Virus record (IMG/VR): IMGVR_UViG_3300037249_000698
Location: 1-64,000 of that record
Origin: a virus
Taxonomy: Duplodnaviria > Caudoviricetes
Strand: one strand, 5' to 3'
Length of the DNA: 64,000 bases
Position numbers and translations under genes: made by a program. How positions within the stretch are numbered: the first letter of the stretch is position 1; each line of letters starts with the position of its first letter. Positions 1,724-55,042 of the stretch are shown piece by piece. Under the pieces are notes generated by a model. It ran no database searches, had not been told where the DNA came from, and was given only the letters and a program-made list of their open reading frames with translations.

Positions 1724-1749
1724 AAAAAAGGGTATGGCGAACCATACCC
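1724..1749 (-). terminator. intrinsic terminator
   Basis: GGGTATGG-cgaa-CCATACCC with A6 on the left. Confidence 0.85.
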
Positions 1750-1776
1750 AAAGTGAGGACAACAAATGAACGAATT

Positions 1777-2211
1777 TTAATCTAATACACTGGCTTTAAA
1801 CTCTAATTTAGGTGCAGACTCCTTAACCTCTAATGTCTTATCAACAATCTTCTTTTCATCATCGGTAAGCATGTCGTATGCTTTCTTTGATAAAGTGTGA
1901 GAGACTTTAAACAGTTCTCCTACATTTACAAAGTTTTCATCAAGTTCACGAGCGACTTCATCGAATGTGCTTTCTACGACCTTGGTTGTATAAGACTTTG
2001 TGAAAATCAGTTCGCCACCATCCACTTTAGCCTTGTTCTTACCAACGGTGCTTTCAGCAAAGTTCTTTTCTACGAGTTCTTTACGTAAAGCCATTTCCTG
2101 TGCTTTGATGTATTCTAACAGTTCTGCGGTCTGTCTCCACGCTGTTAAAGTATCGCCTGACTTAATCTTTTCTGAAATTTCTTCTTTCGCTAATTCTACT
2201 AAAGTACACAT
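1777..2211 (-). CDS. conserved phage hypothetical protein
   Basis: start reassigned to ATG 2211 behind AAAGGAAG. Confidence 0.75.
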   Translation of the reverse strand: MCTLVELAKEEISEKIKSGDTLTAWRQTAELLEYIKAQEMALRKELVEKNFAESTVGKNKAKVDGGELIFTKSYTTKVVESTFDEVARELDENFVNVGELFKVSHTLSKKAYDMLTDDEKKIVDKTLEVKESAPKLEFKASVLD

Positions 2212-2314
2212 AATTTTACTTCCTTTGTTTGTGTTAAAACCTTTATTTGTGACTGCTCTCACCTCAACATTTACCACCTAACATCAAGGCGAGAGACTTA
2301 TTCTTTAATATCCT

Positions 2315-13824: not shown

Positions 13825-13853
13825 ATTATACGACAAGTATTATACATCGTCAA
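13825..13853 (-). promoter_or_regulatory. sigma70 promoter for replication operon
   Basis: TTGACG-N17-TATAAT. Confidence 0.8.
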
Positions 13854-13894
13854 TAGTTATTTTTAATATTTTTAATTTTGTAAATAGTTTGAGC

Positions 13895-13924
13895 AAAAAA
13901 AATGCCCACTCAAAAGAGTGGGCA
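13895..13924 (-). terminator. terminator of tRNA/ncRNA transcript
   Basis: TGCCCACTC-aaaa-GAGTGGGCA with A8. Confidence 0.9.
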
Positions 13925-14135
13925 AAATGGAGTATAACACATGATTAACGAATTTGGAAAGCACACCTAGCACTATACCAACAGGAAAGCAATTAATAAA
14001 CACAATGCCGATGTGCTTTCTAAATTCTAGGTGAGATACAGGTAGCTAAGGAGAAAACAATGAAAGAAAAAACTACCTGTATCTCCTGCCTATTTTATTT
14101 TACTTTGCATAGGCGGGCAAAGTAGGAGTATATAT
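13925..14135 (-). ncRNA. candidate multi-hairpin sRNA with anti-SD/anti-AUG loops
   Basis: 16-bp and 13-bp stems; loops/linkers complementary to RBS+ATG. Confidence 0.55.
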
Positions 14136-14258
14136 TTAAAAATACCAATCATCTTCGGGTATCTTTTCGTTTTCTTTAATTCTATCGTATATGCTCTTAT
14201 AATAACACACTCCACATATAATTGCAAGAACTATTAAAGAAATAATTGCGATACCCAT
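14136..14258 (-). CDS. small membrane protein (40 aa, not in ORF track)
   Basis: GGAGAA RBS; MGIAIISLIVLAIICGVCYYKSIYDRIKENEKIPEDDWYF. Confidence 0.65.
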   Translation of the reverse strand: MGIAIISLIVLAIICGVCYYKSIYDRIKENEKIPEDDWYF

Positions 14259-14275
14259 AAAATTCTCCAAAATTT

Positions 14276-14364
14276 TGGCGGTGAGTGCAGGGATCGAACC
14301 TGCAAAACGCTTTTCAACGTTTACGGATTAGCAATCCGCTGTAATACCATTATACGAACTCACC
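14276..14364 (-). tRNA. tRNA-Ser(GCT)
   Basis: cloverleaf, long variable arm, GTTCGA, encoded CCA. Confidence 0.9.
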
Positions 14365-14608: not shown

Positions 14609-14644
14609 GTATGCACTATCGTATTAAACAATAACGCATAGTAA

Positions 14645-14747
14645 TGGTGGGGCGTACAGGAATTGAACCTGTTATTACCTCCCTCTCTTTGTACTTAAAC
14701 AAAGAAGAGATAACGGAGATGATGATAACCATTGTCACTAACGCCCC
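14645..14747 (-). ncRNA. tRNA-like RNA with extended anticodon arm
   Basis: perfect acceptor stem+ACCA and T-arm; no canonical anticodon loop. Confidence 0.7.
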
Positions 14748-14820
14748 AAATATCCGTTGATTACACTGGCTCAACGGAAAGCCTTGATAACCACAAGCAA
14801 TAAGCAAATGGTCTAGTAAA

Positions 14821-14907: not shown

Positions 14908-14982
14908 TATCACAGCGATAGGAATCGAGCCAACGACCTATGGTATCTTCAGTCCATCGCTCTACCATTGAGCTACATCATC
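14908..14982 (-). pseudogene. degenerate tRNA-Phe(GAA)
   Basis: intact D-arm TAGCTCAATGGTAGAGC and CTGAAGA loop; broken T-arm/acceptor, no CCA. Confidence 0.6.
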
Positions 14983-15065: not shown

Positions 15066-15141
15066 TGGCTGGGGCAGGTGGGTACGATCCACCGCATGAC
15101 GGTATCAAAAACCGTTGCCTTACCAACTTGGCTATACCCCA
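15066..15141 (-). tRNA. tRNA-Gln(TTG)
   Basis: ACGGT-TTTTGAT-ACCGT, CCA; atypical T-loop ATCGTAC. Confidence 0.88.
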
Positions 15142-15147
15142 AATTCA

Positions 15148-15431
15148 TTATAGAGTGCATTTTACCAACCATAAGGGAGTAGCATCTTTCGGATCGGATA
15201 TAAGTATTACAAGGTAAAATGCACTTTATAACAAACTTGTGTGACGTAAAAAGACTTTCTGAAAAATCGCCACTTTAAAGACATTCCGGAATATCTTTAA
15301 ATATTTTCATTTCAAAAGACCCTTTCTGCTACACTTCCATTGTGACAAGTCAATGGTCAAACGTGATGAGTGGGTTCGTTACTACTAAGCAGGAGTTAGA
15401 CTTAGTAATGGTTTGCAATCAGCTAAACCAT
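15148..15431 (-). ncRNA. structured leader/ncRNAs of tRNA operon
   Basis: 19-bp stem 15148-15231 plus several hairpins; two loops carry anti-SD. Confidence 0.45.
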
Positions 15432-29285: not shown

Positions 29286-29582
29286 TTACTCCTTAAAATT
29301 AGCTACAACATCTTCAAAAATGGTATATACGACTTCTACAGTCTTTGTATCGAGGTTAATCTTAGACAGATATTCACCATCACATAAAGCCTCCATACCA
29401 GCCTTACAAATATCACCAATGGTCACATCACAATCTTTGCGACATTCGTAAACATCAGTCAATACGTCAATCGCATCATCTGCATATTCAGCCAGATGCT
29501 TATTTTGACAGCAGTTTGTGATTACTTCTTCAATTTCAAACAGCATATCATTGTACTTACAAGTTCTTTCAAATTCGTTCAT
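29286..29582 (-). CDS. acidic hypothetical protein
   Basis: first gene behind promoter 29631-29659. Confidence 0.7.
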   Translation of the reverse strand: MNEFERTCKYNDMLFEIEEVITNCCQNKHLAEYADDAIDVLTDVYECRKDCDVTIGDICKAGMEALCDGEYLSKINLDTKTVEVVYTIFEDVVANFKE

Positions 29583-33363: not shown

Positions 33364-33406
33364 TTGACAATTAAAATAAGATATAGTAATATATACTATA
33401 TCTTAT
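33364..33406 (+). promoter_or_regulatory. early promoter, -10 inside inverted repeat
   Basis: TTGACA-N17-TAATAT; ATAAGATATAGTA/TACTATATCTTAT. Confidence 0.85.
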
Positions 33407-33425
33407 GAAACAGGGAGCAAACACA

Positions 33426-33839
33426 ATGGATAATCAGATAATTAAAAAAGTATTAAATGCTATGTTTGATAACGGATTAGAAAGTTTTATTGAAAAAATG
33501 GTTTTCAGTAAAGCTAGATATAAGGATGATTATTTTAAAAAGTATTTCAAGACTAATGATAAAATCTATTATTTAACTTATAATCAGTATTCTAATATGG
33601 TATGTAGTAATATTGAAATAGAATTACAAGAAATTGATGAAGATTTGATCGGTTATACTCCTGTAGACTCTGAAAGAATTGTGCTTTATGATACAGTGAA
33701 CGATGCTTGGGATAGTTTTAGATCTAAACATGATGATGATAATTTAACGGATTCTGAAATGGATGCTTTATATGAAGATGAATACAAAGACATTATTTTT
33801 GAAGATGTGATAGATATTCTATCAAATTATTGTTATTAA
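33426..33839 (+). CDS. acidic early protein
   Basis: AGGGAG RBS; acidic C-terminus. Confidence 0.8.
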   Translation: MDNQIIKKVLNAMFDNGLESFIEKMVFSKARYKDDYFKKYFKTNDKIYYLTYNQYSNMVCSNIEIELQEIDEDLIGYTPVDSERIVLYDTVNDAWDSFRSKHDDDNLTDSEMDALYEDEYKDIIFEDVIDILSNYCY

Positions 33840-33842
33840 CTG

Positions 33843-33871
33843 TTGACAAAAGAAAAATTATATAGTATCAT
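33843..33871 (+). promoter_or_regulatory. early promoter
   Basis: TTGACA-N17-TATCAT. Confidence 0.8.
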
Positions 33872-33904
33872 GTATAACATCAAATAACAAATGGAGTTGA
33901 ACAA

Positions 33905-34423
33905 ATGAACACATCAATTATAAAACATGCTAACGTACGTAACATTAAAGACAAAACTGTTGTTGATGTTGATTACGGATTGGAATATATAAAAGGAAAT
34001 AGGGATGCATATTTCTTTATAACCGGCACTGAATATCATGCAAATAAAAACGGTGAACGTGATGCAAGGCGTAAAGATTGTATTCAGTGCGGAGCAATAG
34101 GAGAATATATTTGTACCTTAAACAAAAATTTTGAAGATTTAAATCACTTTCATGGTAGATATGCGGATGGATCTCCATTATATCCTGTTGAAAATGGTTT
34201 GTTTTGGTTAGGTTGCACTAAATATGAAGCGTTTAATTTAAAATACGTGTGTGAACATTTTATGATAAATGAACAGGAGGCATACAGACTTAAAGATATT
34301 ATTCATTCAGAAATGGATGATAATAAAAAGCGTGAAATTTTACAAAATATTATTGATACTGAATATAAAAGTAAATGGTTAGCGGAGGCAAAACGGATTC
34401 GAGATAAGTATAACTTGTGGTAA
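33905..34423 (+). CDS. early hypothetical protein
   Basis: YFFITG...CGAI...GSPLYPVENGLFW. Confidence 0.8.
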   Translation: MNTSIIKHANVRNIKDKTVVDVDYGLEYIKGNRDAYFFITGTEYHANKNGERDARRKDCIQCGAIGEYICTLNKNFEDLNHFHGRYADGSPLYPVENGLFWLGCTKYEAFNLKYVCEHFMINEQEAYRLKDIIHSEMDDNKKREILQNIIDTEYKSKWLAEAKRIRDKYNLW

Positions 34424-34440
34424 AAAATTTAAAATAACTA

Positions 34441-34482
34441 TTGACAATACAAAAAGGATAGAATATAATGTATCTATCCTTT
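34441..34482 (+). promoter_or_regulatory. early promoter, -10 inside inverted repeat
   Basis: TTGACA-N17-TATAAT; AAAGGATAGA/TCTATCCTTT. Confidence 0.85.
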
Positions 34483-34518
34483 AGAAACAAAGCGAGTTTA
34501 ACACAAAAAGGAATTATT

Positions 34519-34836
34519 ATGGAAACTATTAAAGAAGTACGACAGGATATTAAAAACAAATTAGAAGCTATAAATCAAGATGATTACATGGTAGAAAATG
34601 ACTTAAAATTAGTATTTGCTCCATCCTGTGGTAAATATCGTATCGAATTAACAGGGAGTGTAAACAAGGTATTTTTTGCACATAATCTCCGTGAATACAA
34701 GCTATGTTTATATAATTTTCACTCTTTAACTTGGATTTTGAGTAGACATTATAAGAATCCTAACACTGATGATGTTTTATCTATACAAAGTGTTATTGAA
34801 CTTTTGGAGCATTGCGGATTTTATTATTATTGTTAA
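34519..34836 (+). CDS. early hypothetical protein
   Basis: AAGGAA RBS. Confidence 0.75.
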   Translation: METIKEVRQDIKNKLEAINQDDYMVENDLKLVFAPSCGKYRIELTGSVNKVFFAHNLREYKLCLYNFHSLTWILSRHYKNPNTDDVLSIQSVIELLEHCGFYYYC

Positions 34837-34852
34837 ATTTTAAAAATAGTTG

Positions 34853-34893
34853 TTGACAAATAAATTAAGATAGTGTATCATAACACTATCTTA
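34853..34893 (+). promoter_or_regulatory. early promoter, -10 inside inverted repeat
   Basis: TTGACA-N17-TATCAT; TAAGATAGTGT/ACACTATCTTA. Confidence 0.85.
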
Positions 34894-34922
34894 TAAAGAA
34901 AACCTAACAGGAGTACCAAAAA

Positions 34923-35621
34923 ATGGGATGGGATGGAATTTATATCAGTGAACCGCACAAAACTGTATCTGAAAAGTTATCTGTATATTTCAAGTATCAC
35001 GGATTTTGTGAAAATGAAGTTGTAAAAGCTACTATCAAAAATGGTGTTGTTTACGGAGCAATCCGGAACTTAAAAACAAATGATGTATGGGCTATGGTTA
35101 GTTTGTTAAAATTCAGAAAGGATGGATGGCAAACTGAAATGCTAGTAAAAAATATGAGTGAAGATATGATGCCGTATTATTTTGATTGCCCTAAAGCTAT
35201 ACTTGATTTATTGACAAAAACTGATAATGAACATTCTAACGAATGGAGAAAAAGATGCTATGAACAGTTAGCAAACCAAAAGGAAAAAGCAAAAGTAAAA
35301 AAGAGTCCATATATTTTTGTAAAATCCGGTATTAGATTTAGCATGGGTTGTACTTATCATGTGTTTGAAAAAGATTCTACTATGCGAACTAAATATCATA
35401 CCTTTGAAACAGGATATGGATTAAGAATCAGTCATATAAATGATTTTGATGTGCAGTACATATCAGAAGAACAATATTTAAGATGTAAGGATGCATATTA
35501 TAAGATTAGGGATGCTAAAATTTTAGTAGAGTATGAAAAGACTAACGATCCGGAAATGATTAAATTATCACAATTAGAATTATGTGATGTATATCAAAAT
35601 ATTATAAATCAGACTGAATAA
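34923..35621 (+). CDS. DUF6927-like protein
   Basis: MGW start; KNMSEDMMPYYFDCPKAILDLL...EWR. Confidence 0.65.
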   Translation: MGWDGIYISEPHKTVSEKLSVYFKYHGFCENEVVKATIKNGVVYGAIRNLKTNDVWAMVSLLKFRKDGWQTEMLVKNMSEDMMPYYFDCPKAILDLLTKTDNEHSNEWRKRCYEQLANQKEKAKVKKSPYIFVKSGIRFSMGCTYHVFEKDSTMRTKYHTFETGYGLRISHINDFDVQYISEEQYLRCKDAYYKIRDAKILVEYEKTNDPEMIKLSQLELCDVYQNIINQTE

Positions 35622-35624
35622 TTA

Positions 35625-35667
35625 TTGACAAATAAAACTAGATAGATTAAAATAAATCTATCTAGTT
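35625..35667 (+). promoter_or_regulatory. early promoter, -10 inside inverted repeat
   Basis: TTGACA-N17-TAAAAT; AACTAGATAGATT/AATCTATCTAGTT. Confidence 0.85.
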
Positions 35668-35684
35668 AGCAAGGGAGTTATATT

Positions 35685-36107
35685 ATGGGATATGAAGTAA
35701 GGGATGTGTTTGATATATTAGAAAAAGAATTAACAGATTATTTTTTGTCTTTACCTGTTGAAAAGCAAGTACCATTAATAAATGAATATTATAACACTAT
35801 TAAAATTATAAAATTAACAGATTGTCTATCAGATGATCAAATGGAAAATTTTTATAAAAAAGTTGAAAATTTATATGTAGTATTTTTTGGTAAAACTACA
35901 TTAGAACCGATTATTTATACAAAAACGGAATTGATAAAACAAGACTGGTTTATACATGCCATTAAAACATTATGTTATTGTTATGATAAATTTTCTTTTG
36001 ATGATATTGAAGATTCTCATATTCAAGATATTATTATAACTATGCAAAATGTCGCAAGGGCAATAGACAAAATTAAAAATCAAAAAGTTGAAATAATTTT
36101 AAAATAA
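35685..36107 (+). CDS. early hypothetical protein
   Basis: AGGGAG RBS. Confidence 0.8.
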   Translation: MGYEVRDVFDILEKELTDYFLSLPVEKQVPLINEYYNTIKIIKLTDCLSDDQMENFYKKVENLYVVFFGKTTLEPIIYTKTELIKQDWFIHAIKTLCYCYDKFSFDDIEDSHIQDIIITMQNVARAIDKIKNQKVEIILK

Positions 36108-36110
36108 TAG

Positions 36111-36152
36111 TTGACAACAAATAAAGATAGTATTATAATGATACTATCTTTA
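36111..36152 (+). promoter_or_regulatory. early promoter, -10 inside inverted repeat
   Basis: TTGACA-N17-TATAAT; TAAAGATAGTAT/ATACTATCTTTA. Confidence 0.85.
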
Positions 36153-36171
36153 ATACAGGGAGTAATAACAA

Positions 36172-36648
36172 ATGATGATAGATTTAGAAATTATTATTGA
36201 AGAATTAGATCGCTTTTATAACGTTCACTGTTTAGAAAATGATAGATTAAACAAGTTTTCAAAGTGCATTATTGAAGATGCAAAAAGAATGATAACAAAT
36301 GTTATTTCAGACTATGGATTTGAAATTGAGTCTAAACAGGAATTAGCAAAACGGATTTCAAAAAACAGATATGAATATTTAGATCTCACAAAATTTGCGG
36401 AATTAATATCATCCTGTAGTATTGATGCGGAAATTTGCACAGATACAATTTATAAAAGATATTTATCAGATAATCTGTATAATGCGTATAAGAATGAAGA
36501 TCCAAGTTTTGAAGATGCTAGAAAACGTATGATCGGATATAGACAAAATATGACTGATATTTATTTAGAGGCTAAAAGTTATGCTAAGGCATGGCAAAAA
36601 ATCGAACGTATTATTGATGATATAGAAGAATTTAAACTAACACATTAA
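36172..36648 (+). CDS. early hypothetical protein
   Basis: AGGGAG RBS. Confidence 0.8.
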   Translation: MMIDLEIIIEELDRFYNVHCLENDRLNKFSKCIIEDAKRMITNVISDYGFEIESKQELAKRISKNRYEYLDLTKFAELISSCSIDAEICTDTIYKRYLSDNLYNAYKNEDPSFEDARKRMIGYRQNMTDIYLEAKSYAKAWQKIERIIDDIEEFKLTH

Positions 36649-36656
36649 AATAATTG

Positions 36657-36697
36657 TTGACAAGTTTTGTGAGTAGTAGTAAAATACTACTCATAAA
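36657..36697 (+). promoter_or_regulatory. early promoter, -10 inside inverted repeat
   Basis: TTGACA-N17-TAAAAT; TGAGTAGTA/TACTACTCA. Confidence 0.85.
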
Positions 36698-36719
36698 CCA
36701 AAAACAGGGAGTTAAAATT

Positions 36720-37253
36720 ATGAATGATTGTGAATATATAAAAGACTTTTGGACTAATGATGATGTTAGAATTGTTTACAGTACAGACTTTTTGAAACAG
36801 GATAAGGAAAACGATTTTAAAAAAGCTATTGAAAACCTGTATGAATATATGGTAAACGGAGATTTTGAAACAGAATTTGATTTTGATGTAGAAAACGATT
36901 ATTGCATCTTATGTGAAGAATATCCGGAACTTGAAACATATAATATCTTGCATCGTATGGGGGATTTAGACTCATATTGTGAAGAATTTAATATAACAAT
37001 TAGTAACTTTTTGGAAAATATGGATGATAGCTTTAGTTTGTGCGATAATTATTTTTGTGATAGTAGACAATATATAAGCGGAGATAGTTTAACTAGTTTT
37101 AATATTGATTATTTAGATATTGTTAGACAAATAGCATTTTCACCGGAAAAATTACTACAATTTGAAAACGGAAAAAACATTATTTTAAAAAATTTAGATT
37201 GTGACCATTTAAAAAAGATACTTATTGATATTCTAAACTGTATTGAAAAATAA
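36720..37253 (+). CDS. acidic early protein
   Basis: AGGGAG RBS; weak similarity to 31617. Confidence 0.8.
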   Translation: MNDCEYIKDFWTNDDVRIVYSTDFLKQDKENDFKKAIENLYEYMVNGDFETEFDFDVENDYCILCEEYPELETYNILHRMGDLDSYCEEFNITISNFLENMDDSFSLCDNYFCDSRQYISGDSLTSFNIDYLDIVRQIAFSPEKLLQFENGKNIILKNLDCDHLKKILIDILNCIEK

Positions 37254-37256
37254 ATC

Positions 37257-37299
37257 TTGACAATATTTTTAAAGTAGTATAGATAATTCTATACTACTT
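37257..37299 (+). promoter_or_regulatory. early promoter-like element with inverted repeat
   Basis: TTGACA; AAGTAGTATAGA/TCTATACTACTT; -10 poorly spaced. Confidence 0.6.
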
Positions 37300-37319
37300 A
37301 ATAAAGTAAAGTTATAGAT

Positions 37320-37412
37320 ATGGAGAAAAACGGATTGTATTATTTTTGCTTAATTATTCTTTTATCATTCCTGTTTGTTATTGATAACATTCTTTTACAG
37401 ATAATGAGATGA
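37320..37412 (+). CDS. 30-aa hydrophobic peptide (not in ORF track)
   Basis: MEKNGLYYFCLIILLSFLFVIDNILLQIMR; weak RBS. Confidence 0.35.
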   Translation: MEKNGLYYFCLIILLSFLFVIDNILLQIMR

Positions 37413-37444
37413 TAAACGGAATTTAAATTTTTTTAAAATAGTTA

Positions 37445-37473
37445 TTGACAAAAGAAAAATAGTATATTATCAT
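37445..37473 (+). promoter_or_regulatory. early promoter
   Basis: TTGACA-N17-TATCAT. Confidence 0.8.
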
Positions 37474-37558
37474 ATATAGCATAGTAACGGAGCAATATCA
37501 AAAAGTTAAACCTGTTACTGATTAAAAAACGGATTATAAATAAAAGGAATATAACACT

Positions 37559-38587
37559 ATGAATACTAAAATTGAAACTCTTATTAAAAAATCACTCTGT
37601 TTAAACTCTAATACCAATAAAGTTTTAGTTAGTCAAAAAGACAATATTTTGACTCTTGAAACATCAAACTTTATGGTTAAAATTCCTGTTAATAGTAATG
37701 AAACATTTGAAGGTTTTACAAGTTCTGATATTATTAAATCTAACAGTATTGATAATATTAAATTTATCACTCGAATTGAAGATACTTCAAACGAATATAG
37801 ACACGAATTTAAAACTTATTCCAAAAAGGTAGTTATTAATCCAGTAAATTTTAAAAAGTTATTATTACAGAAAACACAGAGTAATAATGCAAATATTTGT
37901 GATGCCGTATGGTTTAATTACGATAATATGTATGAAACAAACGGACATTACATCATAGCTATAAATAACGCTTATTCAGAAAACGATTGTACTTTTGGAA
38001 TAGATAAAAAGATTGTAGAACTATTAAAAAATTGTACTGAATACTTGTTTGTAAGTTATGAAAATAATGATACAGATTATCACAAATCACAAAATACCAG
38101 TATAGAATTAAATATTGACGGAATACTATTTCATTATAATTCAGTAATTACTATTTGTGATTTTAAGTCTATGATCCATAATGCTATGAGTTTTAAATCA
38201 CAAATTTTAAAGGAATACAAGTTTGACAATTTAAAGGAATTTTCAAAACTGTTAGCGAGTGCTAAAAACGATGAAAAAAGGATTGTATTAGATTTTAAAA
38301 AGGATAAATTGACCGCATATAACATCTTTAATGCAGGTACTATAAACAATTATAAAATGAGTGAGATCGGCACATGTAACAGTAATTATCATTCAGATGA
38401 TGAATTAAATAGAATTGTAATTGATAGTAACTATGCAAAAAAGATAAAAGATGCGATTAAAAATGATGCGGAAATATTATTAAAATTAGAGGGAGATAAA
38501 AGATACGGAATAAATAAAATGACCATTAGAAATAGTAATTTGACTTTAATTATTATGGGAGTTGTGAATTGTAATTTTATTGAATAG
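37559..38587 (+). CDS. divergent beta sliding clamp (DnaN)-like protein
   Basis: ETNGHY ~ ATDGHR, IDSNY ~ FNxxY, LIIMGV ~ YVVMP; 342 aa. Confidence 0.5.
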   Translation: MNTKIETLIKKSLCLNSNTNKVLVSQKDNILTLETSNFMVKIPVNSNETFEGFTSSDIIKSNSIDNIKFITRIEDTSNEYRHEFKTYSKKVVINPVNFKKLLLQKTQSNNANICDAVWFNYDNMYETNGHYIIAINNAYSENDCTFGIDKKIVELLKNCTEYLFVSYENNDTDYHKSQNTSIELNIDGILFHYNSVITICDFKSMIHNAMSFKSQILKEYKFDNLKEFSKLLASAKNDEKRIVLDFKKDKLTAYNIFNAGTINNYKMSEIGTCNSNYHSDDELNRIVIDSNYAKKIKDAIKNDAEILLKLEGDKRYGINKMTIRNSNLTLIIMGVVNCNFIE

Positions 38588-38669
38588 TCATAAAAATTAT
38601 AGGGAGTATATATGAATACTCCCTATTAAATCAGTATGAAAAACGGATTAAAAATTTTTAAATTTTTTA

Positions 38670-38698
38670 TTGACAATAAAAAGTCATTGTAGTATCAT
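38670..38698 (+). promoter_or_regulatory. early promoter
   Basis: TTGACA-N17-TATCAT. Confidence 0.8.
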
Positions 38699-38740
38699 GT
38701 ATTCCATACGATGAACGGATAACAAATACGGAGTAACGAT

Positions 38741-39094
38741 ATGAATACTTTAAAAGATTTAATTAAAAATTCATTCCATAATTTTAATGAAAAATTTTCT
38801 TTATTAAAAAATGATGTTTTCTATACTGTAGAGATCCAGTATGATTTAAATGTGGAATATTCAGATCCGGAAATTGTTGTATGTATGGAGACAAAAAAGC
38901 ATAAAATTGAATTTAGTTTTCATTTGAATAGTTTTTTTAATGATTATTATAATGGGGATAATTTTGAAAAACAGTATAATCATTTTCAAAATTCTGTTTT
39001 AAACTCTATTAGAAACAGATATTCATTTGTTAAACATAATGATGATAGTTTTATTAAAAAGTGCTTTTTTGGAGGTCAATATATATATTACTAA
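38741..39094 (+). CDS. early hypothetical protein
   Basis: ACGGAG RBS. Confidence 0.75.
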   Translation: MNTLKDLIKNSFHNFNEKFSLLKNDVFYTVEIQYDLNVEYSDPEIVVCMETKKHKIEFSFHLNSFFNDYYNGDNFEKQYNHFQNSVLNSIRNRYSFVKHNDDSFIKKCFFGGQYIYY

Positions 39095-39139
39095 TAATGT
39101 GATACAGGTCATAAAACGGATTATTTTAAAATTGACCTG

Positions 39140-39168
39140 TTGACAATTAAAAAACAATATGCAATAAT
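39140..39168 (+). promoter_or_regulatory. early promoter
   Basis: TTGACA-N17-AATAAT with TG extension. Confidence 0.75.
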
Positions 39169-39200
39169 ATATTCATGTTTTGAGATATGGAGTAAACAAT

Positions 39201-39440
39201 ATGACTAATAAAGAATTTAGCGAATACAGATCCGGCAAAAAATGTGCTTCAGAATATATCATGGAGCTTGTCAATATACGTGTATATAATCCGGATAGTT
39301 TAACATCAAGACAATTAAAACAGATTATTAAAGATAAAATTGATTTATCAAATAAGTTAATTACTGATAATAATCAAGTATCATTTAATCAAGGTTATAA
39401 ACATACTATGGAGGATTTTTTACACTTCATCACAAAATAA
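39201..39440 (+). CDS. early hypothetical protein
   Basis: ATGGAG RBS. Confidence 0.75.
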   Translation: MTNKEFSEYRSGKKCASEYIMELVNIRVYNPDSLTSRQLKQIIKDKIDLSNKLITDNNQVSFNQGYKHTMEDFLHFITK

Positions 39441-39452
39441 ATCAAATAGTAA

Positions 39453-39494
39453 TTGACAATTAAAAAAGATAGTATTATGATAATACTATCTTTT
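39453..39494 (+). promoter_or_regulatory. early promoter, -10 inside inverted repeat
   Basis: TTGACA-N17-TATGAT; AAAAGATAGTATTAT/ATAATACTATCTTTT. Confidence 0.85.
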
Positions 39495-52876: not shown

Positions 52877-53731
52877 ATGGCATTTAAAGATCCTAACACA
52901 AAAACTTTTCAACCTATCGTAGATTCTCTCGATGGTGTTGATGAAAACATTAAGTCGCTTTATGCAGAGACTACTGACGGTAAGTATCAAATTCGAGCTG
53001 ATATAGCATTTCAGAGCGACTTTGAACGTGTGCGTGATACTCTCACAAAAGAACGTACAAGTAATAAAGAGTTAAACGCAAAACTGAAAGAATTACAGTC
53101 TAAACTCGATGCTTACGGCGGTATCGACCCGACAGGCGTAAAGGGTATGCAGACTGAACTCGCTAACCTTAAATCTACCGAAACTGATTTGAGCAAGATT
53201 AAGTCTAGTAAGGCAGATTTAGAGTTGCAGTTTAAAAACTTAAAAGAACAGTTTGATGAACTCTCTAAAATCAATCAGCGTTACGAAAAAGAACGTACTG
53301 AACAGCGTCTAAAAGACAGTGCTAGAAAGGCGTTTGGTGATAACGGCATTTTAGACAGTGCTATGGAAGATGGTCTGTTATGGGCAACACAGGTACTTGA
53401 AAGTGCCGAAGATGGCTCTGTAAGAGTTAAAGACGGTACTAAATATCCTGCCGGGGTAAGCGTTGACAGTTGGGTTCAGCTTTTCAAGAAAGACAAGCCA
53501 CATCTTTTCGGTGGTTCTGTCGGTGGCGGTGCAGGCGGTAGCGTAAGCAATTCAATAGAAATTGAAAACTGGACTAACACAGGTCTTGATGGTGGCATCA
53601 ACATTACTAAGTTAGCACAGGCAATTAAGGAAGATCCAAAGGCTGTAGTTGCCGTTGCAAAGGCTAAAGGACTTGAAAAGGTGTTAAGAGAACGTTACGG
53701 TTATCTCTATAATCAAATCGCTGATAAGTAA
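52877..53731 (+). CDS. capsid scaffolding protein
   Basis: coiled coil, PHLF..GGGAGG. Confidence 0.8.
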   Translation: MAFKDPNTKTFQPIVDSLDGVDENIKSLYAETTDGKYQIRADIAFQSDFERVRDTLTKERTSNKELNAKLKELQSKLDAYGGIDPTGVKGMQTELANLKSTETDLSKIKSSKADLELQFKNLKEQFDELSKINQRYEKERTEQRLKDSARKAFGDNGILDSAMEDGLLWATQVLESAEDGSVRVKDGTKYPAGVSVDSWVQLFKKDKPHLFGGSVGGGAGGSVSNSIEIENWTNTGLDGGINITKLAQAIKEDPKAVVAVAKAKGLEKVLRERYGYLYNQIADK

Positions 53732-53778: not shown

Positions 53779-53808
53779 GTTTATACTATTTATCGTGTAT
53801 AATAAAAA

Positions 53809-53856
53809 TACTCCTTTATTTGTGACTTTTGGGGTTGAGAAATCAACCCCTTTTTT
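53809..53856 (+). ncRNA. candidate ~48-nt anti-SD sRNA
   Basis: TATAAT 53798, TACTCCTTT, terminator GGGGTTGA-gaaa-TCAACCCC-T6. Confidence 0.55.
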
Positions 53857-54016: not shown

Positions 54017-55042
54017 ATGGCTACAACTCGTTTACAAGACCTTATCGTACCCGAAGTGTACGAGGGTTATCAAACCGATGAAATTACTCGTAAGTTAAAT
54101 CTTATTCAGAGTGGAACTGTTGCTCGTTCTGAAAAATTGGACTCTCTGCTTAACGGCGGTGGTGCTACCTTTAATTTCCCATTCTATAACAACCTTTCTG
54201 ATAGCGGTGAAACTATTGCTACCGATAATCCTGCTGACGTTATCGTTCCTGAAAAGGCAAGTGCTAGTAACTTAGTAGTTGCTCGTTGCGTTCGTACAGC
54301 ATCTTGGGAAGTAGCCGACATTGACGAAATGCTGACCGCAGACGATCCAATGGCATTTATCAGCTCTCGTACCTTAGATTTCCGTCTTGGTTGCTTGCAA
54401 AAGCAGTTCATGTCTGTTGTAAAGGGTATTTTCGCTAACAACGCCACTGCAAGCGATGATTATCATACTCAAAATGACCAACGTTGGGTTGTTTCAGGTA
54501 CTACCTATTCCGCAGGTGTTACCGATTTCAACGTAAATCATCTTATTGACGCAATCTCTCTCATGGGTGATGCACAAGATGGTTTCGGTATGATTATGGT
54601 TCACCCAACTGTATTTGCTAACATGCAGAAGCAGGATATTATCGACACTCGTATTCCTAGCGGTGCATCTGCTCCTGTTCGTTACTACAACGGCTATCAG
54701 ATTATTCTGAATCAGGATCTTCCTAATACTGGCGGTGTTTACTCAACCTACATCTTTGGTCGTGATCAGTTCAAGCTCGGTTTCGGTTCAGTTAAAGAAC
54801 CAATCGCCTTTGAAAAACATCAGGCACAGGGTAATGGTTACGGTGTTACTACTATGTATAACCGTTGGTGTAACGCTATTGCTCCAAAGGGTTACAGCTA
54901 TATTGGTAGTGGTTTCGCTGTGGGCGGTCCTGCAAACGATACTACTAACGGTGCTTTGTCTACCGCAAGTTCATGGCGTAGAGTATGCGGAGATAAGCGT
55001 TCAGTCAAGATGGTTGAACTCGTAACTCGTGAAACTGCATAA
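54017..55042 (+). CDS. major capsid protein
   Basis: MATTRLQDLIVPEV, FPFY, MVHP; synteny. Confidence 0.9.
   Translation: MATTRLQDLIVPEVYEGYQTDEITRKLNLIQSGTVARSEKLDSLLNGGGATFNFPFYNNLSDSGETIATDNPADVIVPEKASASNLVVARCVRTASWEVADIDEMLTADDPMAFISSRTLDFRLGCLQKQFMSVVKGIFANNATASDDYHTQNDQRWVVSGTTYSAGVTDFNVNHLIDAISLMGDAQDGFGMIMVHPTVFANMQKQDIIDTRIPSGASAPVRYYNGYQIILNQDLPNTGGVYSTYIFGRDQFKLGFGSVKEPIAFEKHQAQGNGYGVTTMYNRWCNAIAPKGYSYIGSGFAVGGPANDTTNGALSTASSWRRVCGDKRSVKMVELVTRETA

Follow-up and report, generated by a model that had tools for sequence, protein, structure and literature searches.

Phage-encoded regulatory RNAs are, to our knowledge, still few, and most of them come from temperate coliphages. In Gram-positive bacteria, small RNAs such as RsaE/RoxS and the hairpins of Staphylococcus aureus RNAIII use loops or linkers of the CUCC or UCCC type to pair with the GGAG of several mRNAs. 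They are chromosomal regulators with validated target sets, and an intrinsic terminator is located at their end. Stem-loops are also known from phage DNA as part of the T4-type recombination cassettes, in which a repeated module of promoter plus stem-loop flanks shuffled genes.

Among the RNAs described in phages, the c4 RNA of P1 and P7 is a structured RNA that blocks translation through loops complementary to a ribosome-binding region, and its action requires a secondary structure that exposes these loops (PMC12197685). The tRNA gene region of T4 gives rise to two small stable RNAs, RNAC and RNAD, whose role is unknown (PMC3014915). In the T4 genes e, soc, 49 and I-TevI, a cis-acting anti-Shine-Dalgarno stretch pairs with the Shine-Dalgarno (SD) sequence and the AUG and limits binding of the 30S subunit, and a review from 2010 records no trans-acting regulatory RNA functionally characterised for T4 (PMC3014915).

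The locus presented here belongs to a phage lineage that is not T4-like. The window (the whole stretch of DNA analysed) covers the opening 64 kb of a virus record that is 95,133 bp long and has direct terminal repeats; among its genes are those for a primase, a helicase, a Cas4-type exonuclease, a small DNA ligase, a terminase and tail proteins. The samples with near-identical contigs belong to rumen metagenome projects, and near and distant DNA searches against GenBank phages returned nothing except one tRNA match. Concerning the organization of the genome, the coding strand switches from minus to plus at ~31.2 kb, and the GC skew turns at this same point, at ~31 kb, with no turn at 14 kb. 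The typical start region of the phage genes is AGGAGTAA-N-ATG; these regions are very strong and mutually similar.

In this genome, the initial annotation had described an array of four modules with single-stranded parts complementary to ribosome-binding sites (RBS), located at the 3' end of a minus-strand tRNA cluster and ahead of a terminator. The location was confirmed, with four to five tRNA genes upstream on the minus strand (Gln, an extra tRNA found with Rfam, Tyr, Ser-tga and Ser-gct). The elements of the region are as follows:

14276-14364, minus strand: tRNA-Ser(gct), the last tRNA upstream, which anchors the unit to the tRNA operon.
14136-14258, minus strand: 40-aa membrane mini-ORF between tRNA-Ser and the array, not mentioned in the initial annotation.
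14030-14132, minus strand: conserved RNA unit of ~100 nt (ACUCC, pseudoknot and hairpin H2), scoring 122.3 bits with covariance model R1.
14125-14129, minus strand: single-stranded ACUCC directly 5' of the pseudoknot, conserved in relatives.
14101-14124, minus strand: pseudoknot helix S1, 8 bp (14124-14117 paired with 14108-14101), detected by script.
14088-14114, minus strand: pseudoknot helix S2, with 14114-14109 (inside the S1 loop) paired with 14093-14088 and an A-rich third loop L3 (AAAUAAA) between.
14033-14085, minus strand: hairpin H2, with a perfect 13-bp stem (15 bp with U.G and U-A) and the pyrimidine loop UUUUUUCUUUCAUUGUUUUCUCCUUAG.
13950-14027, minus strand: hairpin A, with a 16-bp stem (core AAAGCACA/UGUGCUUU) and a 46-nt loop; accessory, outside the conserved unit.
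13931-13949, minus strand: module 4 of the initial annotation, GUUAAUCAUGUGUUAUACU, read as a promoter-like relic (TGTG-T-TATACT).
13895-13924, minus strand: intrinsic terminator of the tRNA/mini-ORF/RNA transcript, a 9-bp stem (13924-13903) followed by U8.

The comparison with relatives does not sustain four equivalent modules, conservation being limited to the ACUCC that precedes the first hairpin and to the loop of H2. As far as can be judged from related sequences, this part of the flagged array is a genuine conserved structured noncoding RNA motif of a narrow clade of rumen phages, previously undescribed, and the stretch 14132-14030 is very probably a functional structured RNA.

In its working mode, this unit is closest to the c4 antisense RNA (phages P1 and P7; family C4 in Rfam), with which it shares a structure that presents an RBS-complementary loop. 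Unlike c4, which has defined cognate targets in its own operon, the unit is complementary to start regions as a class, with no target above chance; furthermore, it has no Rfam match at gathering or E-value thresholds, it adds a pseudoknot and it sits in a tRNA operon. When the 64-kb window was searched with Rfam 15, whose families include the C4 antisense RNA, ROOL, GOLLD, pseudoknotted riboswitches and small ribozymes, only tRNAs reached the gathering score. In a permissive scan of 13850-14300 the best results were terminator-like matches, with 12-28 bits against cut-offs of 41-141.

The likeness to RNAC and RNAD of T4 is one of position only, the unit also lying inside a phage tRNA cluster, but in a different phage lineage. 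With the Gram-positive RNAs the unit shares a pyrimidine-rich loop of the CUCC type and an intrinsic terminator, whereas it is phage-borne, has a much longer invariant loop and carries a pseudoknot at its 5' side. The cis sequestration of T4 takes place within one mRNA, beside the regulated gene; here, in contrast, the unit is parted from the next gene by the terminator and, 3' of it, the strong promoter of the ligase gene, and its neighbours change between families. Regarding the T4-type cassettes, hairpin A and a promoter-like box do shift relative to the unit between families, but a single copy is present in the region, and the unit itself shows covariation at the RNA level.

DNA from relatives was taken upstream of the ligase gene, from relatives whose ligases are 98% and 72% identical. 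The near-identical family (L073-L090, L106; the window family) contains the same array with few substitutions, and the 72% family (L002, L008, L091-L102; the L002 family) contains a rearranged version of it. The near-identical contig L005 begins only 78 nt before the ligase gene. In the relatives with ~60% ligase identity (L006, L007, L009) there are no tRNAs or unit at the corresponding position. Scans of IMG/VR with the loop pattern gave ~190 loci, nearly all of them true gene starts on the opposite strand, and the only new members confirmed by the model among them were L214 and L004. A search of metagenome and genome collections with the promoter/hairpin-A pattern returned only the window and L002 families and unrelated promoters.

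The minus-strand fold of the flagged region reaches -84.3 kcal/mol, compared with -45.7 +/- 4.0 kcal/mol for shuffled sequences (z = -9.7). The covariance model R1, built from two families (window and L002), detected one significant copy over the whole 95-kb genome, at 14030-14132, and scored 95.6 bits in L002, 73.7 bits in L214 and 56.5 bits in L004. In the four-family alignment, which was fitted to the model and thereby favours structure somewhat, 97.1% of the cells are paired (27-44% with slid partners), 15 of the 21 pairs present changes on both sides, and the covariation score, which rests on four lineages, is 0.642, a value reached by 0 of 500 shuffles, against at most 0.197 for slid partners. 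Two families aligned with MAFFT, with no fitting to the model, had 98.6% paired cells and nine double changes. Moreover, all six variable events counted within the L002 family fall at unpaired positions.

The hairpin at 14101-14124, initially considered a simple hairpin for the display of an adjacent sequence, is real; it corresponds, though, to one helix (S1) of a conserved pseudoknot. The sequence of the inner pairs of S1 differs by family with the pairing kept (UACUUUGC/GCAAAGUA, ACUUGC/GCAAGU, ACUCGG/CCGAGU and ACUCG/CGAGU). This helix was counted by script only, because its registers differ in the alignment and MAFFT gave no single one. In S2, 100% of the cells are paired and 4 of the 6 pairs are double-changed across families. 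All five modules have an H-type geometry (S1 of 5-8 bp, L1 of 1-2 nt, S2 of 6-9 bp, L2 of 0-1 nt and L3 of 7-10 nt, A-rich in four of the five), and the topology found in 5/5 modules appears in 0.4-1.4% of the shuffles of each module. Both helices are thus backed by compensatory changes, and they may also form mutually exclusive hairpins instead of a simultaneous pseudoknot. CUCC is located 0-3 nt ahead of S1 in copy a of L004 and in the other three families (window, L002 and L214), and copy b of L004 has CCUC; over all five modules the distance is 0-4 nt. The TATACT at 14132-14127 was considered as a -10 box of the unit and rejected, given that most near relatives read TAACTCC.

Hairpin H2 with its invariant loop is the core of the unit. 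Its perfect 13-bp stem (14033-45/14073-85) and its 27-nt loop are as the initial annotation described them. Across families the stem measures 10-15 bp and is free in sequence, while the loop, of 23-27 nt, is almost fixed as UUUUUCUUU..UUUUCUCCUU(A/G). The stems share almost nothing (GAGAUACAGGUAG in the window family, AAGAUGCGAGUAG in L214, GAUGUGCUAUCAG in L002 and AAAGCGUUGG in L004), and 11 of the 15 stem pairs are double-changed across the four families. The loops, on the contrary, are near-identical (UUUUUUCUUUCAUUGUUUUCUCCUUAG, GUUUUUCUUUCAUUGUUUUCUCCUUAA, GUUUUUCUUUUAUUUUCUCCUUGA and UUUUUUCUUUUGUAUGUUUUCUCCUUA, in the same order). Both the minimum-energy fold and the centroid fold leave the loop unpaired. 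Hence, at least one hairpin displaying a single-stranded anti-SD-like sequence exists, namely H2, with a conserved loop that contains CUCCUU. The anti-start codon, which had been proposed as part of the display, varies: two families have CAU, a third has UAU or UGU, and the fourth has UGUAU. Since the anti-AUG is not conserved, the H2 loop is no faithful antisense copy of a start region. A covariation-supported RNA motif accompanies the tRNA genes in uncultured rumen phages, and the one part of it that is invariant is a long loop with complementarity to the generic ribosome-binding region. Model R1 can be used for annotating this motif in rumen viromes.

Hairpin A and module 4 behave differently from the core. 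The 16-bp stem reported at 13950-65/14012-27 exists: 15 of its 16 positions pair and one, on the minus strand, is A x C. In near relatives, too, mismatches in this stem are tolerated. Hairpin A follows the unit in the window and L214 families and precedes it in the L002 family; in the stretches of L004 that were read, none was seen. In the L002 family, the same AAAGCACA/UGUGCUUU stem core encloses a different 46-nt loop. The proposal that this loop is an anti-RBS element did not hold, as it favours start regions no more than coding-internal controls and is not conserved in L002. Module 4 (GUUAAUCAUGUGUUAUACUCC) does not stand as an anti-RBS module either: in the L002 family it aligns with a TRTGnTATAAT promoter, and L214 lacks it. 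The promoter scan gives TTTCCA-18-TATACT with an upstream TG at module 4, and this module (GTTAATCATGTGTTATACT) is the homologue of the L002 box GTTAATTGTGTTATAAT, placed in the window after the body and directly ahead of the terminator.

Regarding transcription, the only bounds of the unit in the window are the operon promoter (15467-15439) and the terminator (13924-13903). In the window family, and only there, the unit is the 3' UTR of the 40-aa mini-ORF, whose protein is identical across six members of that family and is gene-called in relatives; this mini-ORF is missing from the L002, L214 and L004 families. The unit also lies downstream of the same tRNA-Ser(gct) in L002 and L214. In the L002 family the order is tRNA-Ser, a hairpin of the hairpin A type, the box GTTAATTGTGTTATAAT, the body and a terminator. 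This body aligns with window 14132-14030, its stems being wholly different yet paired and the loop of its long hairpin almost identical. Directly before the unit, the box TGTGTTATAAT is, by its sequence, an extended -10 promoter of the TRTGnTATAAT type, which does not appear in the promoter-scan output because it has no -35 box. With its own extended -10 promoter and a scanned terminator, the body is predicted to be a free-standing gene of ~145 nt in this family. In L214, the unit lies 14 nt after tRNA-Ser(gct); hairpin A and a terminator unlike that of the window come next, without module 4. In L004, it is found in the 5' leader of the tRNA operon, with a diverged tandem copy just upstream. 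In 4/4 families the unit is inside the tRNA operon and on the tRNA strand. We also rejected an 83-aa ORF that is called on the opposite strand in contigs of the L002 family, since in our reading it overlaps the tRNA-Ser gene and is without an SD site.

The complementarity of the H2 loop to the start regions of the phage is clear at the level of the class. Its mean duplex energy with 133 start regions is -12.0 kcal/mol, compared with -9.1 +/- 0.67 kcal/mol for shuffled loops, which it beats in 100 of 100 cases. It reaches -10 kcal/mol or lower with 96 of the 133 regions (45.9 for shuffles) and with 8 of 74 coding-internal windows, and its mean energy is near the best 5% of true reverse-complemented start regions. 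The best single duplex, at -21.4 kcal/mol, is an ordinary value for a start region in reverse complement (median -20.5). Pairing of module 4 with start regions is weaker than that of the H2 loop (P = 0.01), and that of module 1 is marginal. The small genes at 15.5-47 kb have a slightly stronger predicted pairing with H2 (-12.9 kcal/mol) than the replication and structural genes (~-11 kcal/mol).

The specific targets named in the initial annotation are another matter. The match of 16/18 nt to gene 28844 and those to the other named genes are at chance level, as 41% of the real start regions match each other as well or better. Likewise, a 12-nt exact complement between the array and the gene leaders is the longest found anywhere, and shuffles average 11.5 nt (P = 0.46). 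Accordingly, the predicted pairing with phage mRNAs stands for the H2 loop against start regions as a class, above shuffles, and no specific target rises above chance.

The unit would thus be a phage RNA of the sRNA type, probably acting on SD regions. The best overall explanation, which has close to an even chance of being right, is a conserved structured RNA of the tRNA operon that pairs with SD regions in trans. The H2 loop contains the CUCCUU core of the 16S anti-SD tail flanked by U tracts, so that it is the complement of the consensus phage start region (A-rich, AGGAG, A-rich). Base pairing of the loop in trans with the SD regions of many mRNAs would lower or time their translation, and the pseudoknot and the terminator would serve as end-protecting or scaffold elements. 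In the window phage, the unit would be the 3' part of the tRNA/40-aa-ORF transcript, ending at the terminator 13924-13895. What the sequences show is the structure, its strand, its conservation and the complementarity to start regions as a class. As to the mechanism of SD pairing itself, we infer a discrete RNA, pairing in vivo and a change in translation, and its chance is somewhat short of even.

If the unit acts on SD sequences, two translation-directed tools of the phage, tRNAs and an SD blocker, would be joined in one operon, and the way in which such phages time or bias translation would become accessible to simple tests. It should be noted that a CUCCUU loop would also strike the own genes of the phage, all of which have strong AGGAG sites; a general blocker would therefore need some additional selectivity or timing. 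Moreover, the placement of the unit varies by family (3' UTR, own gene, 5' leader of the tRNA operon), so that protein binding or processing of the tRNA transcript fit too.

Concerning protein binding, the unit could be a decoy, sponge or recruiter whose invariant pyrimidine loop is the site for a host or phage protein, with the pseudoknot as a second contact or scaffold. The candidates would be a binder of pyrimidine tracts or of the 16S tail, e.g. ribosomal protein S1, an Hfq-like chaperone, an RNase or a defence nuclease. Where a stem covaries and its loop is invariant, a reader specific for the loop sequence is the classic explanation, and the lack of a specific mRNA target, the tolerance of different transcript positions and the retention of the U tracts and CUCCUU without a conserved anti-AUG all agree with this possibility, which would make the unit a new RNA decoy. 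However, no candidate protein is linked to the unit, whose neighbour genes differ between families, and the strong complementarity to start regions as a class would be a coincidence; such a role is rather unlikely.

The unit could also be a cis-acting module for processing or stability of the tRNA operon transcript, whose pseudoknot and long hairpins block exonucleases or mark sites for RNase III or RNase P/Z, the anti-SD likeness being incidental. Its constant presence in the tRNA operon and on the tRNA strand, 14 to ~130 nt from a tRNA or in the operon leader, is what such a module would show; its perfect 13-16-bp stems are plausible substrates of a double-strand RNase, and CUCC loops are present on several other hairpins of the same operon. 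Nevertheless, stability or cleavage needs structure and not an invariant loop of 23-27 nt, and the L002 unit, with its own promoter and terminator, is separate from the tRNAs, which makes this role fairly improbable.

A variant of the preferred reading, pairing with SD regions in trans, is that the unit is an RNA mimic of the 16S anti-SD tail, made together with the tRNAs and holding CUCCUU rigidly in a U-rich loop, that would compete with ribosomes for SD sites genome-wide. This is a decidedly doubtful possibility; if true, the unit would be a global translation switch (host shut-off, or early to late phage genes) and not a gene-specific antisense RNA.

A structured RNA of the minus strand, as initially proposed, and not a coding or plus-strand feature, is supported by the minus-strand tRNAs, the U-tract terminator and the pattern of G.U pairs. 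In the near-identical family, the stem transitions at 14074 (A>G), 14042 (C>U), 14033 (C>U) and 13904 (C/U) each produce a G.U pair when the minus strand is read, whereas the plus strand would have A x C, the last of them lying in the terminator, where the variant of the relatives forms a G.U pair on the minus strand only. U.G pairs are also present in H2 of other families, and one contrary substitution, at 13956 in hairpin A, favours the other strand. A DNA-level replication origin at the array was considered and rejected on the basis of the skew turn at ~31 kb and the G.U pattern, which fits RNA.

On the plus strand, the mini-ORFs of 9 and 21 codons reported by the initial annotation do exist. 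Their start-region matches at 13941 and 14060 score 11.5 and 12.2 bits, compared with a median of 10.3 for true starts, using a position weight matrix built from 134 translation start regions of the same phage. These scores would suit an array without RNA function, made of decayed inverted gene starts, tiny plus-strand ORFs or DNA recombination cassettes (promoter and stem-loop modules shuffled between phages), as would the rearranged module order between families and a loose repeat, TATACTCC(N2-3)TTTGCCC, that we read at 14132 and 13936. This explanation is nonetheless very improbable: compensatory changes preserve the helices in four families, the G.U pairs fit the minus strand only, the GC skew does not turn at the array, and the opposite-strand 21-codon ORF is without its ATG in two families, while in a third, in our reading, its peptide is unrelated. 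A plus-strand RNA with GGA/AGGAG loops acting as a CsrA-type decoy, the alternative named in the initial annotation, is scarcely credible: the plus strand also folds well (z = -7.6) and is the only one to pair the hairpin A mismatch 13956/14021 as G.U, but it has neither a promoter nor a terminator with a U tract, while 4 of 5 stem transitions and the U.G pairs elsewhere favour the minus strand, on which all flanking genes and tRNAs lie.

Finally, the unit is not the only place where antisense copies of the RBS motif occur in this phage. Scored with the same weight matrix, intergenic DNA contains seven antisense start-region-like matches, compared with 2.1 +/- 1.45 in dinucleotide shuffles (P ~0.012), and three of the seven are in the tRNA region. 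On the sense strand of intergenic DNA, TACTCC is found 7 times against 1.0 expected (a count reached by 0 of 300 shuffles) and ACTCC 9 times against 2.7 expected. With the antisense matches and TACTCC above chance, the antisense copies of the RBS motif are therefore enriched, modestly but really.

Among the elements outside the array (the stretch of hairpins at the 3' end of the tRNA operon, minus strand), a very short unit with its own promoter and terminator was found:

window 53800-53856, plus strand: tiny promoter-to-terminator unit between genes 52877-53731 and 54017-55042

Within this unit, AGUCACAAAUAAAGG is a perfect 15-nt complement to the leader of gene 1777-2211 (window 2240-2254), a length that was equalled in none of 200 shuffles (shuffle mean 10.3, maximum 14). 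As a putative sRNA with one specific target, the unit together with this leader is more promising than anything in the array.

Another stretch with antisense content lies upstream of a terminator:

window 1724-1777, minus strand: 3' UTR, antisense of GTGAGGACAACAAATGAACGAATTT

Here, GTGAGGACAACAAATGAACGAATTT scores 10.2 bits against the weight matrix made from the phage's own translation start regions, and AAATTCGTT is common to this 3' UTR and module 4, the promoter-like relic before the array's terminator. The 12-nt complement between the 3' UTR and the start of gene 29286-29582 was not significant (P = 0.12).

Palindromes were also present among the plus-strand genes:

window 33376-39494, plus strand: intergenic series of palindromes, perfect and built as AAGATAGT-N6-7-ACTATCTT
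window 38599-38626, plus strand: palindrome ATAGGGAGTAT-ATATGA-ATACTCCCTAT

Those of the series sit between small early genes and are probably linked to promoters or operators. In the palindrome at 38599-38626, a strong SD is paired to its own complement, an ATG is left in the loop and the site reaches a start-region score of 14.3 bits; it looks like a hairpin sequestering the SD in cis.

Regarding the conserved unit of the array (ACUCC, pseudoknot and hairpin H2), a further copy was found in a related rumen-phage family, and a long hairpin in the window itself:

L004 5880-5989 (G001:C1:15880-15989), minus strand: diverged second unit, the upstream member of a tandem pair with the main L004 copy
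window 15140-15239, minus strand: long hairpin directly before tRNA-Gln

The second L004 copy scores 26.9 bits and has UUAACUCCUAC and a pseudoknot, along with a long hairpin whose loop differs. The hairpin before tRNA-Gln has arms of 27 nt, 85% paired, with three of the four mismatches being G.U on the minus strand, and carries CUACUCCCUUAU inside a loop that is once more 46 nt long; R1, the covariance model of the unit, gave no match to it.

Moreover, the contig ends of L005, L076, L077, L081 and L082, all from the window's own phage family, fall inside or beside the array. These breaks, from several independent assemblies, lie 78-458 nt before the ligase gene, the next one downstream, and may be caused by the long hairpins or by local micro-diversity. 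L082 begins with about 30 nt that appear to be an artefact of assembly.

The tRNA cluster holds two additional elements:

window 14910-14982, minus strand: fifth tRNA (Rfam, 37.7 bits), not called by ARAGORN
window 14643-14750, minus strand: tRNA-like element, acceptor and T arms intact, very long inserted arm
L002 2544-2640 and L214 2200-2297: counterparts of the tRNA-like element

The tRNA-like element, called by neither ARAGORN nor Rfam, is kept in the tRNA clusters of these two relatives.
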